Shown: piece after piece, positions 3,653-51,382 of the stretch
How the letters are laid out: each line of letters begins with the position of its first letter
Numbering within the stretch: the first letter of the stretch is position 1
Assembly: GCA_965204375.1 (NCBI GenBank)
Contig: OZ241986.1
Span: 4,352,001 to 4,416,000, forward strand
Direction: 5' to 3'
Origin: Candidatus Latescibacterota bacterium
Lineage (GTDB): Bacteria > Latescibacterota > UBA2968
Length of the DNA: 64,000 nt
The notes under the pieces: generated by a model
The model's database searches: none
Seen by the model: the letters and a program-made list of their open reading frames with translations, nothing else
Told to the model about the DNA's origin: nothing
Made by a program: the position numbers and the translations under genes

Positions 3653-3955
3653 TCATTTCACCAATCCCTTCTGCCGACCGCGGCGTAGGGAGCGTTTTTG
3701 ATCTGCGGAATTTGAGGGATAGGCGGTGATGACGCGCTCGTTGCGTATTACGACCTTGCGATTTGCAAGGCGGCTCAACGTTTGTATCTCTCGCTTACGC
3801 ATCTCGATCTCGCGGGTGGCATCCCGGTTACGCATAAAATAGGTCTCGTCGTCAATCTGTGTTCCACACGCGAGAATGATCGGAATATCTGACTTGCGAA
3901 TGCCGCGCTGTTGCATGCGGGTCTTGGCGTGTCGGCTATAAATGAGATCGGTCAT
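3653..3955 (-). CDS. DUF4258-family (RelE-like) putative toxin
   Basis: YSRHAKTRMQQRGI N-terminal motif and VITAY; ATGA overlap with the upstream HTH gene. Confidence 0.7.
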   Translation of the reverse strand: MTDLIYSRHAKTRMQQRGIRKSDIPIILACGTQIDDETYFMRNRDATREIEMRKREIQTLSRLANRKVVIRNERVITAYPSNSADQKRSLRRGRQKGLVK

Positions 3956-5004
3956 TGCTCTTTCCCTCCTTTTTTCACTTCGGAATTGTTCTTTCGAGAC
4001 TCCGCTTCCTCCAACACCTTCTTCATTTTGTCGCTCCCCGACGACGTAGCCAAGAACTGTATGAGTATGTGCCTTTCATCCTTCTCCGAAATTTCTTTGA
4101 TGACGTTCAGCAGCTTGTCTTCGAGCCATTTTTCACGCTCCTCACCCGCGTCTTCCGCCATTAGTTCTTCGGGAATCTCAGAGATACGCGCATAGCCGGT
4201 TTCAAGGCATATCCTGGCAGTAGAAGAACCGTTGGCGATGCGGTCAAGTTCGTCGCTACAGATGTCGTAGTGAGGGAACTTGAAATTTGACGCCAAGCTG
4301 AGAACACCACTATCTACATCAACCACGCCGGAGGCAGCGAGTTCTTCTGCTAACTTTCGCAAATAGTGGGTGAAGGGGTTGTTTTTAGAGGCATCAAAGG
4401 GCGTACCCATAAAATCATCATCCAGATGTTCGCCAAATAGATCAGCCTTATCGATGGACTCTCCTTCTCCGCCGGCACCTTCGTCCATGCCGTGCTGAAG
4501 ATATGCGCTGCCCCCACTCCAGAATCCATCAATTTGCATCAAATGATCGTACGCTTCCTCCACCTCTTTCAATTTTTCGCGTCGCCAGGCGAGACTGCCC
4601 TCGGCCAGAAGCACAAAGAAGAGCGGTGCCATGTTGATGATCTCGGTGACACCAACGCCATATCGGCGTTTAATCAGGGCATAGGCGAGTCGGGTCTTCG
4701 GTGCTACCTGCGCGCCGATCTGGACGCGATCGGGGTTGTCGGCAGGTGTCTTATTGGACTCGGGAAGCGGCAACTCACTGGTGAGTACACCCGTTTTGAC
4801 ACCAAGTGCCTGGGCCAAGCTATTAAGAGTGTGCTCTTGGGTTTTTTTGGATTTCTGCGGCTCTTTTTCCAAGCGTTGGATCGTGCGGTCAGAAATTTTA
4901 GATCGTTCAGCAAGTTTGAGGCGTGTCAGTCCTCTCTGTTCTCGTAGGGTGCGAAGGCGTTCAGGATCGATTTTCATGGTGAGACTCCTTGATGAAGTTT
5001 TCAC
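3952..5004 (-). CDS. XRE-family HTH regulator with long C-terminal domain (start probably MKIDPERL near 4977)
   Basis: LRTLREQRGLTRLKLAERSKISDRTIQRLE HTH. Confidence 0.8.
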   Translation of the reverse strand: MKTSSRSLTMKIDPERLRTLREQRGLTRLKLAERSKISDRTIQRLEKEPQKSKKTQEHTLNSLAQALGVKTGVLTSELPLPESNKTPADNPDRVQIGAQVAPKTRLAYALIKRRYGVGVTEIINMAPLFFVLLAEGSLAWRREKLKEVEEAYDHLMQIDGFWSGGSAYLQHGMDEGAGGEGESIDKADLFGEHLDDDFMGTPFDASKNNPFTHYLRKLAEELAASGVVDVDSGVLSLASNFKFPHYDICSDELDRIANGSSTARICLETGYARISEIPEELMAEDAGEEREKWLEDKLLNVIKEISEKDERHILIQFLATSSGSDKMKKVLEEAESRKNNSEVKKGGKEQ

Positions 5005-5112
5005 GGCGAGACTGCTTAAATTTGAGATGCTGTAAATGTAATAAAATTTCTATTACGATACAATAGACAAATATTCTAAAATAATTATTGTATAATAGGA
5101 TATTTAGGGTGT

Positions 5113-45540: not shown

Positions 45541-45827
45541 GTGGAATGCCCTGAGTCTGATGGGTGAATTCTATTTTAAAACACACGCAACAGTCAGACC
45601 CGAAGCAAATATCAAGCCAACGTCACAGAGATTGAGCGATAAATTGTATAGACAGAAGCTCAAGTACCCTCATCATGCTTTTAATATGCTGTATTGCGCT
45701 CTTAACTTGAATATAAAGATCGCCTTGGGAAGCACATACAAACCGAACACGCCGGGATGTAAAAGTGTACGTTTTGAGCCATGAATGGGCGGTCATGTGA
45801 AAGATATGTACCGCTACCTCTCGCGCC

Positions 45828-46526
45828 TCACAACCCCTGATTCTTTTCTCTCAACGACCATGATCTATCCGGATTGTGATACAACCACTGCTCCATATTT
45901 TCTTTAATCCGGGACCATTCCGTATCCAGCATGGAAAACCACGTCGTATCCCGGTTGCGGTCCTTAACAATCAGATGCTGGCGAAAAAGCCCTTCATACG
46001 TGAACCCCAGGCGGAGCGCAGCAGACCGCGAGCGTTCATTGAGCGCATCGCATTTCCACTCCACACGGCGATAACGCATACAATCAAAAGCCTCGCAAAG
46101 CATGAGATACGCCGCCTCGGTATTCGCACACGTATTTTGTGCCTCGGGACCATACCAGATATTTCCAAGCTCCAACCGACGCGCATCGGGTGCAATATTC
46201 AAAAAACTCACCATACCAATAGGCCGACCAGATAATTTATCCCGAACACAAAAAAAGAGCGGATCCTCCGAACGCTCAATCCCCTCAAGCCACGCCTGCA
46301 TGTCCGACACATCTTCAAAAGGCCCATACGCCATATACGTCCACAACTGCTCCACGAGTTCCGTCCCATGCGAACATGCAAACAATCCGGGTGCATCCTT
46401 TTCCGGATCGAGCGGCGACAGCGCAATATACTCACCTTCATAATCCACTCGTCGCGGGACACGCACTTCAGACACAGACGGAACAAAATCGCCAACGGGA
46501 AGAGACAGCATCGAGTTTATCTCCAT
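45828..46526 (-). CDS. RimL-like GNAT acetyltransferase
   Basis: YRRVEWKCDALNERSRSAALRLGFTYEGLFRQH...NRDTTWFS. Confidence 0.9.
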   Translation of the reverse strand: MEINSMLSLPVGDFVPSVSEVRVPRRVDYEGEYIALSPLDPEKDAPGLFACSHGTELVEQLWTYMAYGPFEDVSDMQAWLEGIERSEDPLFFCVRDKLSGRPIGMVSFLNIAPDARRLELGNIWYGPEAQNTCANTEAAYLMLCEAFDCMRYRRVEWKCDALNERSRSAALRLGFTYEGLFRQHLIVKDRNRDTTWFSMLDTEWSRIKENMEQWLYHNPDRSWSLREKNQGL

Positions 46527-46675
46527 AAGCTATAGTTAGTGTAATATTCTGAATATATTCGGCATATTCTTTGACAAAACCAAAAAAATTAAGGTTTCCC
46601 CAAAATGGGGATTATGTAGTTGAGTAGCATGATCGCTCCTCCTTTCAGTTTCAATTTAGAAAATATGAATATTCA

Positions 46676-46704
46676 TTGACATTGTAAAAGGGATTCGATA
46701 GATT
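46676..46704 (+). promoter_or_regulatory. sigma70-like promoter of passenger ORF 46813
   Basis: TTGACA-17-TAGATT. Confidence 0.6.
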
Positions 46705-46812
46705 ATCAGCATCTGTCAAATTACTGATATTTTTGTCTTACATTACGAATATACGTTTTAGCCCTGACGGACAAACTCACGGAAGCCCTGACGGCATCCA
46801 AAGGAGAGTTCC

Positions 46813-47268
46813 ATGGATATACAGAGACTCATTAAAGAAGAGTACAAGGAGCATGAACCTTTCTATTGCAAGGAACACGCTTTGGCAATATCGAAAAGGA
46901 ACGTACTCGAAAGAATTGTGCGCGAGCGTTCTGGAGAGCCTGAGGTAGTCCCCTCGATCTGGGATAACAAGCGGGCACCTACTCCGATTGTGGTGCCAGG
47001 GGGATCTGGTGGCGAAGCCATAGGTGTTGCTTTAGTCGCTTTGCTCATCGGCGGCGGCTATGCGCTATACAAATGGCTATCCAGTGACGATGCCCAAACG
47101 TCGTCCAATGACACTTCTGGCAACTCTGGTGCCCCTTCTGTGAATGAGCAACTCAACCGCATCGAGGAAAGGCTCGACGGACTCGACGCGAAACACGCCG
47201 ACATTGAAAGGGCGCAAGATAGAGCGAAAGCCATCCTGGACCGCCTTAAAGTTCCCGAAGCGGCTTAA
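46813..47268 (+). CDS. passenger protein with one TM helix and C-terminal coiled coil
   Basis: AAGGAG RBS; AIGVALVALLIGGGYALYKW; LNRIEERLDGLD. Confidence 0.7.
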   Translation: MDIQRLIKEEYKEHEPFYCKEHALAISKRNVLERIVRERSGEPEVVPSIWDNKRAPTPIVVPGGSGGEAIGVALVALLIGGGYALYKWLSSDDAQTSSNDTSGNSGAPSVNEQLNRIEERLDGLDAKHADIERAQDRAKAILDRLKVPEAA

Positions 47269-47280
47269 CCATATTACATG

Positions 47281-47365
47281 AAAAAAGCCCTGGCGGTATC
47301 GAGTCAAACTGCTGATAGCATTAGAGCATTCAAGTTTGTCCGTCAGGGCCATGAGAGCTAATTTC
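47281..47365 (-). ncRNA. candidate antisense RNA A, convergent with ORF 46813
   Basis: GCCCTGGCGG/CCGTCAGGGC stem with U-tract on the minus strand; complementary to the 46813 leader; weak upstream promoter (TTGCGA-19-TAAAAT). Confidence 0.45.
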
Positions 47366-47437
47366 CTGTCATAATTTTATGCCAGAAAAAGGGAGATTTC
47401 GCAACTAAAATACTGCCCACTTGGGCAGTAAAAACAC

Positions 47438-47466
47438 TTGCATTTCAGAGGTTACGATGTTATCTT
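47438..47466 (+). promoter_or_regulatory. transposase promoter, overlapped by inverted repeat GGTTACGAT/ATCGTAACC
   Basis: TTGCAT-17-TATCTT with a TGn extended -10. Confidence 0.55.
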
Positions 47467-47504
47467 TATATCAAATCGTAACCCCTTATTTTTTGGGTAG
47501 ATAT

Positions 47505-47588
47505 AAAAAGGGCGAGACCTATGTTCGCGCATAGGTCTCGCCCGACTGCCCTCCATCAAGCTAAACAAAGTGACATTGCCTTAGCTTG
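47505..47588 (-). ncRNA. candidate antisense RNA B, opposite the transposase leader
   Basis: Minus-strand TTGCAA-17-TATTTT (47622-47594); CAAGCTAA/TTAGCTTG hairpin; perfect 14-bp terminator stem 47510-47543 plus U-tract. Confidence 0.55.
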
Positions 47589-47641
47589 AACAAAAAATAA
47601 CGGGTAGCCACACAAATTGCAAGAGAAAAGTGAGGTGTGCT

Positions 47642-48607
47642 ATGGCTACCAATGCCCCTGGCATGCATTTCCGTGAGGGCATGTCTCTGATTCAGTTGTT
47701 CCAGATGTTTCCTGATGATGAGGCTGCCGAGAAGTGGTTTGTTCACACGCGCTGGCCGGATGGGATGGCCTGTCCGCACTGTGGGAGTACGAATGTCAAC
47801 GAAAAGGCCACACACCCTACGATGTCCTTCAGATGCCGAGAATGTGTCAAATACTTCTCGCCAAAGACGGGCACCATCATGGCACGATCTAAGCTCGGAT
47901 ACCAGATATGGCTTATTGCCATCTATCTCTACACCACACACCTTAAAGGCGTGTCCTCTATGAAGCTACACAGAGACCTCGACATCACACAGAGAACCGC
48001 CTGGTTCTTACTCCATCGCATCAGGCACGCCATGTCTGAGGAGGAACAGACCCTCTTTGAGGGCACAGTAGAAGTCGATGAGACGTATATCGGTGGGAAG
48101 GAAGGGAACAAACACGCCAAAGACAAACTGCGTACTGGCAGAGGCACAGCAGGCAAAGTCCCTGTGGCCGGTGTCAAGAACAGAGACACAAAGCAAGTGC
48201 AGGCAATCGTGATCGACGAGGCCGATGAGGACACGTTGAAAGTGTTTATTGAGGATACTGTGGCGCGTGGGGCCACTGTCTATACGGACGGCTCACACGT
48301 CTATAACAGTCTGGAGGGGTATGAACACGAAAAGGTGATTCACTCGCGGGGCGAATACGTCCGGGGGGATGTGTGGACAAACGGCATCGAATCATTCTGG
48401 TCAGGGATCAAACGCGGCATTATGGGCGTGTACCACAAGATCAGCCCAAAGCACCTGTGGCGATATGTCACAGAGTTTGTGGCACGCCAGAACATGCGGA
48501 TGCGAGACACCATCGACCAGATGACGCTCATTGTGCGGAGGTTCGAGGGAAAACGGCTAAGGTATGCAGACTTGACGGCACTGTATCCATCGCTGGAATT
48601 ACGTTGA
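47642..48607 (+). CDS. IS1595-family DDE transposase
   Basis: RWPDGMACPHCGS...CREC zinc ribbon; VEVDETYIGG, YTDG, TNGIESFW. Confidence 0.95.
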   Translation: MATNAPGMHFREGMSLIQLFQMFPDDEAAEKWFVHTRWPDGMACPHCGSTNVNEKATHPTMSFRCRECVKYFSPKTGTIMARSKLGYQIWLIAIYLYTTHLKGVSSMKLHRDLDITQRTAWFLLHRIRHAMSEEEQTLFEGTVEVDETYIGGKEGNKHAKDKLRTGRGTAGKVPVAGVKNRDTKQVQAIVIDEADEDTLKVFIEDTVARGATVYTDGSHVYNSLEGYEHEKVIHSRGEYVRGDVWTNGIESFWSGIKRGIMGVYHKISPKHLWRYVTEFVARQNMRMRDTIDQMTLIVRRFEGKRLRYADLTALYPSLELR

Positions 48608-48773
48608 CAGGCACGGCGATATGATGTATAACTAAACTGTGCAGAACGCACAAATGGAAATGACTCACCCCGTAGAAGGTGAGCCATTCCAAACACTAAA
48701 ATTCATCGCCGACAGATGATGCCTAAACTTACATCACTTGGGGGCATCTGTCAAGGCGGAAAGGAAGCATGCT

Positions 48774-48947
48774 ATGCCCTTCAATAAAGAAGAAGCCTTG
48801 CAGGAGATGGAGGCAGAGCGGGTAGCATTAGAGGTCTATCTGCGCCGGAACGGAGAGACGCCACAATCCATCCAACGGCGCATACCGAAGGCGCCACCAC
48901 CCATAGAATCAAAGCCGATCATGCCGACAGTGCCACCACCCATTTGA
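48774..48947 (+). CDS. passenger microprotein (57 aa, Pro-rich tail)
   Basis: AAAGGA RBS; downstream of a TTGACA-17-TATAAC promoter (48604-48632). Confidence 0.5.
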   Translation: MPFNKEEALQEMEAERVALEVYLRRNGETPQSIQRRIPKAPPPIESKPIMPTVPPPI

Positions 48948-48960
48948 ACGGAGGGTAGTC

Positions 48961-49170
48961 ATGAATCAGCCAGTACTTATTGAACCTGAGAGTGTAGTAG
49001 TGGACCGTAGCCCTATGCCAATTCCTCGTCCGGTGACACTTGCTATTCATTATCGCACCTCAGATGGTGCATTGTCTGTCATAGTGTTCGGATTGACCGT
49101 ACCACAGGCAGATAAATTGGAGTCGGATTTACGTCTAAAGAGGGGAGAAGCCTCAACATCAGGAATATGA
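48961..49170 (+). CDS. passenger microprotein (69 aa)
   Basis: GGAGG RBS. Confidence 0.5.
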   Translation: MNQPVLIEPESVVVDRSPMPIPRPVTLAIHYRTSDGALSVIVFGLTVPQADKLESDLRLKRGEASTSGI

Positions 49171-49277
49171 AGCATAAACATACATCCATCTGGTATCTCT
49201 AACGACGCCTGAAACTTCGCCATTTCTTCCCAGTTTATTTCGTAATCGCTGGCTTTTTGCTGTTCTGAAGTAGCCAT
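49050..49277 (-). CDS. passenger microprotein (75 aa), overlapping the previous ORF antisense
   Basis: Very strong AAGGAGGTG RBS before ATG at 49277. Confidence 0.45.
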   Translation of the reverse strand: MATSEQQKASDYEINWEEMAKFQASLEIPDGCMFMLHIPDVEASPLFRRKSDSNLSACGTVNPNTMTDNAPSEVR

Positions 49278-49323
49278 CTCTCTCACCTCCTTCTGAGATT
49301 AAAATATCAGGTTGGAAAATCAC

Positions 49324-49941
49324 ATGCAAATATACACCCCAGGTGGATTGACAATCAAGTTACATGCAGACCGGGTTGAGCGTGTATTAAAACCTGTCCG
49401 TCATCTCATAAACATCGAAGATGCTTTCGTTGATATTCAATTATGGGCAAACTTCCCCGGTAATATGTTGTCAATTTTAGCTATTATTACTGCTCTAACC
49501 ACACAGTCATGGACTTCGGTATTGATTGTGGGTGTTCTTGGCTTTGTTTTGGTCGATCTCTACCAACAATTTTTTTACTCACGTTTTCTCAAGGTGTTAT
49601 TTCCTTTTGTATTAGGGGCGTTCTACGTCACACTGCCAGCCTCATTGATCACCATTTATATTTTATATCAAGAAGGTGCTATTATAGCTGGAATCACTCA
49701 GTTTGTTATGGTTCTTATGGACATTACAGGCATTGCCGATTTGATTTTATTTTTTTCTACGCCTATTAGGTTTTCTGTCCGATGCCTCTTTGGCAAAAGA
49801 GCAAAGGAAGGTGCGATTGAAGAGGCCTTTATTAAAATCTTGAATCACAAAGCAAGACAAGTTGGCGTAATTCTCGATTGGCAAAGCTACAATCGCCGAG
49901 AAACTGATACCTCTTTCTTTTTTGGGGATCATGTGAGATAA
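49324..49941 (+). CDS. passenger polytopic membrane protein
   Basis: Low-GC ORF with about 4 hydrophobic segments. Confidence 0.7.
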   Translation: MQIYTPGGLTIKLHADRVERVLKPVRHLINIEDAFVDIQLWANFPGNMLSILAIITALTTQSWTSVLIVGVLGFVLVDLYQQFFYSRFLKVLFPFVLGAFYVTLPASLITIYILYQEGAIIAGITQFVMVLMDITGIADLILFFSTPIRFSVRCLFGKRAKEGAIEEAFIKILNHKARQVGVILDWQSYNRRETDTSFFFGDHVR

Positions 49942-50046
49942 TGCTGCCAGCACACGCATCACTTGCCTCCTTTCGCTCTGCTACTCAGCTACATAATCCC
50001 CCCCAAAATACCCCATTCGCGAACCCAAAACATCGTCCTCTGGAAC

Positions 50047-50076
50047 AAAAAAGCCCGTCCTTTTGGACAGGCTTTT
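50047..50076 (-). terminator. purA terminator
   Basis: AAAAGCCCGTCC-TTTT-GGACAGGCTTTT hairpin with U-tract on the minus strand. Confidence 0.65.
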
Positions 50077-50104
50077 CTCATCTCCACATTTTGATCCACA
50101 TCAT

Positions 50105-51382
50105 CTACATCTCAATAATATCCTCTCGCCTTGGTCCCACGGAAATCCACTTCACCGGAACCTCGAGCCACTCTTCGATATGCTCGACATAACGCTGTGC
50201 ATTAGCTGGTAAATCCGAAAACTCGCGCACCGAAGAAATATCTGTTCTCCACCCCGGCAACTTCTCCAGAACAGGTGTCGCCCGGTCGAGCAACGACGGA
50301 ACCGGAAAAATCTCCGTCTTCTCCCCATCGATCTCATAAGCTGTACAAACGGGAATCTCATCCAAATAACCCAACACATCGAGCAGCGACAACGCAACCG
50401 CCGTCGCCCCTTGCATGCGACACCCATAGCGCGTAGCAACCGCATCGAACCAGCCCATCCTGCGGGGCCGACCCGTCGTCGCACCGTACTCCCCTGCATC
50501 GCCGCCCCGCTCGCGAAGCTCCTCCGCCTCCTCGCCAAAAATCTCAGAAATAAAAGGACCTGCCCCCACGCAAGAAGAATACGCCTTCGCAACAGCGACA
50601 ACCTGCGTAATCGAATGAGGCGGAATACCCGCCCCAATCGACGCAAACCCCGCCAAAGTAGAAGAAGACGTCGGATAGGGATAAATACCGTGATCCGGAT
50701 CGCGCAAAGCACCCAACTGTCCCTCCACCAGAATCTTCTTATTCTCCTTCAACGCATTGTGAAGCAGCAACGACGTATCGCAAACATAAGGCTCAATCTG
50801 CTCTCCCGCCGCCATCAAATCGGGCACAACCTCCTCCAGAGACATCAGCGGCTTGTGATACAAATGCTCAAAAAGCACATTCTTCACCTCCAGCGCGCGC
50901 GCGACGCGATCCCGCAAGCGGCCCTCATCGTACAAATCGGCAACCTGAACCCCCACCTTCAAATACTTATCCGAATAAAACGGCGCAATACCAGACTTGG
51001 TCGAACCGTATTTTCGATCCCCCAACCGCTCCTCCTCGTACACATCCATAAGCAGATGATAGGGAAGCAACACCTGCGCGCGCTCAGAAATACACAGATT
51101 TGGCTTCGGCACGCCGCGGGCAATCAGCTCATCCACCTCCTCTATAAAAGCCGGAATATTCAACGCGATCCCCGTGCCGAGAATATTCGTCGTATGCGGA
51201 TAAAACACGCCCGAAGGCAAAAGGTGAAGGGCAAATTTCCCATACTCATTAATAATCGTATGCCCGGCATTATTGCCACCCTGAAACCGAATAACAAAAT
51301 CGGAATCCCGAGCCAGAACATCCGTCATCTTGCCCTTGCCTTCATCACCCCAATTTGCACCTACAATAGCTGAAACAGACAT
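50105..51382 (-). CDS. purA: adenylosuccinate synthetase
   Basis: GANWGDEGKGK, FQGGNNAGHT, EYGATTGRPRR. Confidence 0.98.
   Translation of the reverse strand: MSVSAIVGANWGDEGKGKMTDVLARDSDFVIRFQGGNNAGHTIINEYGKFALHLLPSGVFYPHTTNILGTGIALNIPAFIEEVDELIARGVPKPNLCISERAQVLLPYHLLMDVYEEERLGDRKYGSTKSGIAPFYSDKYLKVGVQVADLYDEGRLRDRVARALEVKNVLFEHLYHKPLMSLEEVVPDLMAAGEQIEPYVCDTSLLLHNALKENKKILVEGQLGALRDPDHGIYPYPTSSSTLAGFASIGAGIPPHSITQVVAVAKAYSSCVGAGPFISEIFGEEAEELRERGGDAGEYGATTGRPRRMGWFDAVATRYGCRMQGATAVALSLLDVLGYLDEIPVCTAYEIDGEKTEIFPVPSLLDRATPVLEKLPGWRTDISSVREFSDLPANAQRYVEHIEEWLEVPVKWISVGPRREDIIEM

Follow-up and report, generated by a model that had tools for sequence, protein, structure and literature searches.

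The window analyzed here is a stretch of 64,000 nucleotides (nt) and is part of a single 6.34-Mb contig in the genome of a Candidatus Latescibacterota bacterium (G000). Positions 46607–50001 of the window hold an element of 3395 bp, which encodes a transposase of the IS1595 family of insertion sequences (IS) and carries unrelated passenger open reading frames (ORFs) inside its terminal inverted repeats. As read from genome comparisons, the element is an active IS1595 mobile unit that has moved recently. It is a transporter IS (tIS), a type previously described for IS1595, and very probably an autonomous, recently active and ISNwi1-like one whose mosaic cargo was acquired independently. It is neither a new kind of mobile element nor a new defence system.

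Borders of the element

The element is bounded by the following sequences.

46599–46606, unstranded: left copy of the target-site duplication, CCCAAAAT, read directly.
46607–46629, plus strand: left terminal inverted repeat (IRL), GGGGATTATGTAGTTGAGTAGCA, 23 nt.
49979–50001, minus strand: right terminal inverted repeat (IRR), complementary to IRL at 22 of 23 positions.
50002–50009, unstranded: right copy of the target-site duplication, CCCAAAAT, an exact 8 bp, read directly.

An earlier note on this DNA had described inverted repeats with one mismatch and an exact flanking duplication of 8 bp. Both are confirmed, the repeats over 23 nt and the duplication at both borders. When up to three mismatches are allowed, the 23-mer pattern is found at only two places in the 64-kb window, i.e. 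at both ends of the element, and the end pattern was matched in none of 100 dinucleotide-preserving shuffles.

A family of 25-nt direct repeats at positions 48716, 49167 and 49941 (72% identity) was considered as possible cassette junctions and rejected. The repeats are absent on relaxed self-BLAST and thus are probably due to chance.

A second copy and empty sites

A second copy of the element (copy A) is located at G000:C1:3520770–3524164 and shows no mismatches over 3395 bases with the window copy (copy B). Copy A has a duplication of its own, TAAAACCG, which differs from that of copy B. Since the whole 3395 bp is identical in copy A, the passengers move along with the transposase gene. The possibility that the two copies represent a segmental duplication with shared flanks was ruled out when copy A was compared with copy B. 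The recent insertion that had been proposed earlier is borne out by this identical second copy with its different 8-bp duplication.

At the site of copy B, the flanks adjoin and the element is absent in 13 of 20 genomes of the same genus. The abutting flanks overlap by a few bases in 12 of these genomes and are separated by a gap of 26 nt in the other (G006). Loci were fetched from 11 relatives, and seven of them have a lone copy of the target (six exact and one with a single mismatch). In these seven loci the empty-site junction reads ...GGTTTCCCCAAAAT followed directly by ACCCCATTCG...; the remaining four did not fit the junction search pattern. In addition, contigs of runs X4 and X7, which are from other metagenome studies, join position 46597/8 to position 50001/2, with 3403 bases skipped. 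The copy A insertion in G000 is in the last codons of an acetyltransferase-like ORF, and the uninterrupted site is present in G010.

The earlier note had suggested looking for empty-site alleles with a single target, and such alleles exist at the seven loci described above. It had also suggested a search of the genome and its relatives for the same ends; this gave copy A and two further elements, termed element C and the G002 element (see below).

GNAT-type acetyltransferase genes adjoin both copies (window positions 45828–46526; L042:817–1221 and 4631–5107), which may be due to chance. The window copy is 73 bp upstream of one such gene. Copy A is within the last codons of one GNAT-type gene and 36 bp upstream of another.

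Transposase and passenger ORFs

The coding features of the element are as follows.

46813–47268, plus strand: ORF1, 151 amino acids (aa), in the upstream slot between IRL and the leader of the transposase gene.
47642–48607, plus strand: IS1595-family transposase, 321 aa, intact (Pfam and NCBIfam).
48774–48947, plus strand: m1, 57 aa from ATG (69 aa from a TTG at 48738), with a helix and then a proline-rich tail.
48961–49170, plus strand: m2, 69 aa.
49050–49286, minus strand: m3, antisense and doubtful, 78 aa (75 aa from an ATG at 49277).
49324–49941, plus strand: a four-helix membrane protein of 205 aa, termed the four-transmembrane (4-TM) protein.

The transposase, the ORF with a membrane segment and coiled coil (ORF1) and the 4-TM protein are all close to their description in the earlier note. 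The family matches and the ORF layout also agree with its proposal that the IS1595-family element is intact and has passengers both before and after the transposase gene.

The transposase sequence matches the Pfam models Zn_ribbon_IS1595 (PF12760, 6.1e-09) and DDE_Tnp_IS1595 (PF12762, 1.5e-38, profile positions 3–153 of 153), and the NCBIfam model transpos_IS1595 (NF033547, 6.5e-58, profile positions 1–215 of 215). It is encoded by one ORF with no frameshift, and the other ORFs of the element match no transposase model. An alignment of the transposase with four relatives (57%–79% identity) shows that residues C44, C47, C65, C68, D146, D216, E250, K257, E278 and R282 are invariant.

IS1595 family members are described, in the account given in PMC8101967, as having 8-bp duplications, one transposase gene and a C-terminal DDE domain, and an N-terminal zinc finger or zinc ribbon is attributed there to all groups except IS1016. 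The element displays a DDE domain, a zinc ribbon, an 8-bp duplication with inverted repeats, and a single transposase gene. The term tIS refers to IS-like elements with passenger genes, which, according to the section on them in the TnCentral preprint (10.1101/2021.05.26.445724), are restricted to the IS1595 and IS66 families. Here unrelated passengers are inside the repeats and move together with them, as seen from identical copies at different sites with different duplications. In this reading, the single zinc-ribbon/DDE transposase recognises the 23-nt repeats, and the 3395-bp unit is inserted as a whole, duplicating 8 bp of an A-rich target. There are two passenger slots, one between IRL and the leader that holds ORF1, and one between the transposase gene and IRR that holds m1, m2 and the 4-TM gene.

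The element looks like a member of the ISNwi1 subgroup. The features of this subgroup are an end consensus of ggnnatTAT and a DDEK plus ER4 motif, and its passenger-carrying members have a length of 1750–4750 bp. The ends of the element (GGGGATTAT; GGGGATTATG) agree with this consensus. K257 is at +7 from E250 and R282 is at +4 from E278, in agreement with the motif. By these criteria the element is like the passenger-carrying ISNwi1 members in its ends, its 8-bp duplication, the D..D..E..K(+7) and E..R(+4) residues, and its length of 3395 bp. Monophyly of ISNwi was not recovered in the tree presented in PMC8101967.

The closest transposases (76%–82% identity) are found in metagenome-assembled genomes (MAGs) labelled Candidatus Latescibacterota and Poribacteria. 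Related transposases (54%–60% identity) are found in MAGs labelled Caldilineaceae, Phototrophicaceae and Cenarchaeum, and a match of 21 residues (62% identity) is present in a Nitrosopumilaceae MAG (L032). It would appear that this IS lineage moves across the boundary between bacteria and archaea within sponge communities.

In the MAG labelled Cenarchaeum (L031:4947–5384), a comparable end, GGGAATTATATAC..., precedes the N-terminal 130 residues of a related transposase (54% identity).

Sibling elements

Other elements with related ends or transposases are found in the same genome and in genomes of relatives.

G000:C1:4045388–4047352 (L040:1–1965): element C, 1965 bp, ends matching at 23/23 and 20/23.
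G002:C1:1549782–1554241 (L019:1783–6242): the G002 element, 4460 bp, identical 23-nt ends, no duplication.
G000:C1:1314625–1319341 (L039): element D, 4717 bp, duplication GAAAAAAT, transposase protein 77% identical.
G016: an element of 4940 bp, duplication TAACTGTC, other small ORFs.
G009: an element of 2462 bp, duplication AAGGATAT, other small ORFs.

The 23-mer of IRL bounds element C and the G002 element as well as copy A. Element C carries a type II methyltransferase (MTase_II, 5.7e-53) and a restriction enzyme (REase_II, 1.3e-10), and its transposase is a remnant of 56 aa. It is missing at the same locus in G003. Its borders are unclean with no exact duplication, and the locus is variable in relatives. 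By its sequence element C is a candidate for a non-autonomous cassette, and the two intact copies could be what mobilises it.

The G002 element carries a BglII-type restriction enzyme (4.5e-75) and an N6_N4 methylase. It has a truncated ORF1 of 68 aa, a broken transposase gene and no 4-TM gene; three further ORFs had no family matches.

Element D, the G016 element and the G009 element display clean 8-bp duplications and have other cargo, which in element D is a leishmanolysin-like metalloprotease. In element D the end also occurs once more internally, at about positions 3750–3772. It was the outer end that served in the last move, a hint that cargo capture is possible when the more distant end is used.

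The leader of the transposase gene

Alignment of the window element with four others shows a conserved region directly upstream of the transposase gene.

47411–47641, plus strand: conserved leader of the transposase gene (alignment of five elements, i.e. that of the window and four others).

The leader displays a terminator-like hairpin at positions 47447–47486, with a T run after it on the plus strand. A second hairpin, at 47510–47543, has a T run after it on the minus strand, and its pairing is kept despite differing sequences. Furthermore, there is a fold-back across the transposase start codon, where positions 47605–47612 can pair with 47643–47650. In the consensus fold, four of 25 predicted pairs have changed on both sides and are still paired. 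The z-score of the RNA fold is –6.86, and none of 200 shuffles was equally good.

Since it is conserved before the transposase gene in four other elements, the leader is counted as part of the IS backbone and not as cargo. The earlier note had listed structured, RNA-like non-coding DNA among the cargo; the strong structure is confirmed, but the region is the leader of the IS itself. A search of Rfam over the whole window, leader included, gave no match at the gathering score.

The back-to-back terminator-like hairpins and the fold-back would form a regulatory leader of the IS. The leader most likely shields the transposase gene from transcription that originates in ORF1 or outside the element, and most likely holds translation of the transposase low.

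Three sub-threshold Rfam matches are at positions 50044–50162, which is outside of the element, in what was read by eye as the presumed purA terminator.

ORF1 and the left subterminal region

Two non-coding features are found on either side of ORF1.

46658–46793, plus strand: conserved left subterminal region, with stretches of 88%–89% identity in the G002 element, G012:C82 and element D.
47285–47349, plus strand: hairpin downstream of ORF1, with its 3′ arm at 47333–47349.

Consensus scans of the left subterminal region show an inward promoter-like site at 46676–46704 (TTGACA-17-TAGATT) and outward-facing promoter-like sites on the minus strand just inside IRL, at 46709–46681 and 46688–46660. 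The region has GCCCTGACGG repeats at 46761–46777 and 46784–46794. The hairpin arm at 47333–47349 is a perfect 17-nt inverse of 46761–46777, thus ORF1 is bracketed by inverted repeats. In element D the GCCCTGACGG-type palindromic module is present as a simple hairpin with no ORF within it. The arrangement suggests a subterminal palindromic module that ORF1 lies within or has been inserted into.

The ORF1 protein has a soluble N-terminal part, one membrane segment (approximately residues 59–87), a Ser/Asp-rich linker and a C-terminal tail that is coiled-coil-like. A search of 5.8 billion proteins gave six clusters, i.e. that of the window itself and five homologues of 44%–75% identity. The homologues preserve the membrane segment and an LSxDDxQTSS motif. 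Among 168 genomes of the phylum ORF1 is found in two, G000 and G002, and is truncated in the latter. The ESM Atlas gave no usable ORF1 match, and a scan of a metagenome contig collection with the ORF1 alignment found none.

Similarities of ORF1 to XhlA (19.6 bits, cut-off 34.7) and to a holin (PHROG E-value 0.017) are weak, fall below the cut-offs and are confined to the coiled coil.

ORF1 could be thought of as an accessory factor encoded by the IS, e.g. a membrane-tethered regulator of transposition, and not as cargo. Its placement between IRL and the transposase gene with a promoter-like site of its own, the IS-backbone sequence on both sides of it, and the recurrence of a truncated ORF1 on the same backbone in the G002 element are in keeping with this idea. 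However, sibling elements D, G016 and G009, which have clean duplications, are without ORF1, and a coiled coil that faces the periplasm would be an odd transposition factor. The IS1595 family is also described in PMC8101967 as having a single transposase gene. An accessory role is therefore considered highly improbable, and ORF1 is treated here as cargo.

The small ORFs m1, m2 and m3

Homologues of m2 are found in two clusters, each with a chain length of 69 aa, at 91% and 79% identity. The ratio of nonsynonymous to synonymous substitution rates (dN/dS) of m2 is 0.51 compared with 0.65–1.04 in five other frames, on a small number of sites (204). A solo, intact homologue is present in G016 (L020:3736–3945, 79% identity), where it is located between a sulfatase-like gene and a leucine-rich-repeat gene. 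No IS sequence was detected around it.

Neither m1 nor m3 has a family match in Pfam, PADLOC, NCBIfam or PHROGs; no separate homologue search was made with m1. The m3 frame is preceded by a strong Shine-Dalgarno-like sequence, AAGGAGGTGA. It overlaps m2 on the opposite strand, and the frame is stopped in the G016 copy, the single related copy seen. Of the three microproteins proposed in the earlier note, m1 and m2 are credible, but m3 is doubtful in view of the overlap and the stop codon.

The 4-TM protein

The 4-TM protein belongs, by its sequence similarities, to a rare unnamed family. A word-based search gave four clusters of homologues and a profile search gave 54 representative clusters. 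These reach down to about 25% identity with the conserved motifs kept. An AlphaFold2 model from four sequences was too poor for use, with a predicted local distance difference test score (pLDDT) of 42, and was discarded. The model from 34 sequences has a pLDDT of 93 and a predicted template modelling score of 0.85, and shows a beta-hairpin at the N terminus, a membrane-helix bundle and a helix at the C terminus. The score of a predicted complex of two copies (0.00) speaks neither for nor against self-association.

Structural searches with this model gave no convincing look-alike. Foldseek showed no matches in PDB and BFVD at an E-value of 0.001 or less, and the best VIA-align wide match (Z 5.5 over 81 residues) is at the noise level for helical proteins. 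Scores for the protein in the ESM Atlas were low (best 0.83). The earlier note had proposed structure prediction and defence-gene screens of the passengers. The first gave a confident fold for the 4-TM protein, but neither a look-alike nor a defence match followed.

The 4-TM gene is present in one of the 168 genomes of the phylum, G000 itself. The family profile had no match in five genomes that hold related transposases, and tblastn with the protein found nothing in 50,697 phage and 72,556 plasmid records. Scans of a genome contig collection with the family alignment, and of viral contigs with a narrower alignment, also gave none. The alignment scan of metagenome contigs detected one contig of 1127 bp (L033), which has a homologue of 45% identity at positions 444–1126 directly after a borderline ribbon-helix-helix ORF (RHH_3, 21.4 bits, cut-off 21.6). 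The open frame at the start of the contig looks, by eye, like a fragment of an integrase and lacks a Pfam match. Thus the contexts seen for the 4-TM protein are the inside of the tIS and the L033 contig. Metagenomic homologues of the passengers include ones on contigs of 258 kb and 7.1 Mb.

All passengers might instead be functionless hitch-hikers or spurious ORFs in an IS swollen by junk DNA. Every passenger is very rare, m1 and m3 had no relatives or family matches in the searches run, and the constraint on m2 is mild. On the other hand, the 54 clusters of the 4-TM family share conserved motifs, and the protein shows covariation enough for a pLDDT of 93 with 34 sequences, compared with 42 with four; the ORF1 homologues retain their membrane segment and motif down to 44% identity, and m2 has a constant length of 69 aa in three contexts. 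The junk reading is judged improbable.

Origin and possible role of the cargo

The cargo reads as a mosaic, put together from cassettes that were acquired separately, and not as one co-evolved module. The GC content of the 4-TM gene is 39.2%, compared with 50.8% for the genome and 52%–53% for both the transposase gene and ORF1, the latter being host-like. Both G002 and run X7 have ORF1 but lack the 4-TM gene. A contig of run X4 displays 99% identity over positions 49274–50001 and then a different flank. In the same run a joint of position 49266 to 49953, with four other letters between, would represent a variant of the element from which the 4-TM gene is missing. The low-GC 4-TM gene would be a later, foreign addition to the element.

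Several points weigh against parts of this interpretation. Of the five aligned elements, two preserve the leader hairpin at 47447–47486 poorly, and one has a broken fold-back at the start codon. The terminator and promoter calls are matches of consensus scans. The support for m1 consists of an open frame and a ribosome-binding-like site. The shorter side of the X4 joint that lacks the 4-TM gene is 22 letters, which is below the trust level. Lastly, the assignment to the ISNwi1 subgroup is a provisional one by ends, motif and length.

The earlier note had proposed that the passengers form a self-contained regulated module, possibly for addiction or anti-phage defence. In such a module the membrane proteins could be abortive-infection effectors, or a small antitoxin could be paired with a membrane toxin. 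Element C and the G002 element, which have the same terminal repeats, do carry complete type II restriction-modification pairs, and the borderline ribbon-helix-helix ORF is just upstream of the 4-TM homologue in L033. Against this, the five passenger ORFs had no significant match in PADLOC, NCBIfam or PHROGs and none at the Pfam curated cut-off. None of the five was detected at an E-value below 0.01 in PADLOC-DB 2.0, which covers defence systems described up to 2023; the best match was PDC-M38B to the 4-TM protein (E-value = 0.028). No toxin, antitoxin or regulator domain was found in the passengers by Pfam, NCBIfam and PHROGs, and no phage or plasmid record matched the 4-TM protein. The passengers are not co-distributed and their GC content differs by 13 points. 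A single module is decidedly improbable on these grounds, and the proposal is not upheld. Because the siblings ferry restriction-modification pairs, the defence idea suits the IS family better than it suits this copy.

Within the preferred mosaic reading, the two membrane proteins may act at the cell envelope, e.g. in exclusion or immunity, and be of some benefit to the carrier. This is the best guess at their role, though in itself an unlikely one, and neutral hitch-hiking is the main alternative. It is quite unlikely, on a wider scale, that the IS lineage is a shuttle for envelope-level immunity or defence cassettes among sponge symbionts, in which autonomous copies would mobilise element C in trans and the 4-TM protein would be a new exclusion or immunity factor.

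Outside of the element, a stretch of approximately 210 bp at window positions 45603–45815 has a PD-(D/E)XK/Rpn-like ORF on one side and the acetyltransferase gene on the other. It is present as many repeats in every same-genus genome compared, at 70%–92% identity. As RNA it displays no notable structure (z = –0.40).

Relation to known elements and significance

tISCpe8 and MTnSag1 are examples of tIS, with 25-bp repeats and 8-bp duplications (PMC5704250). The window element is like these in having an IS1595-type DDE transposase, inverted repeats of about 25 bp, 8-bp duplications and internal passengers that move along. In PMC5704250 the cargo of these two elements, which are from Firmicutes, is given as lincomycin resistance and a mobilisation function. 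Unlike them, the window element has, to either side of the transposase gene, membrane and small ORFs that are orphans, shows no oriT or relaxase match, and is chromosomal in a sponge-associated MAG lineage. Element C resembles the mobile insertion cassettes (MICs), as these are outlined in PMC3129680, with the same repeats, a transposase remnant and cargo. The likeness is limited to element C, which is without a clean target duplication, and does not extend to the window element.

As an IS1595 tIS seen shortly after a move, the element makes a clean natural case: its ends are intact, its two copies do not differ, and relatives have the sites empty. The same genome holds a transposase-less sibling that has the same ends and a restriction-modification pair. 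Together these provide a convenient system for the acquisition of cargo by IS1595 elements and for the mobilisation of cargo in trans, and a small unnamed family of four-helix membrane proteins is flagged as deserving a functional test.

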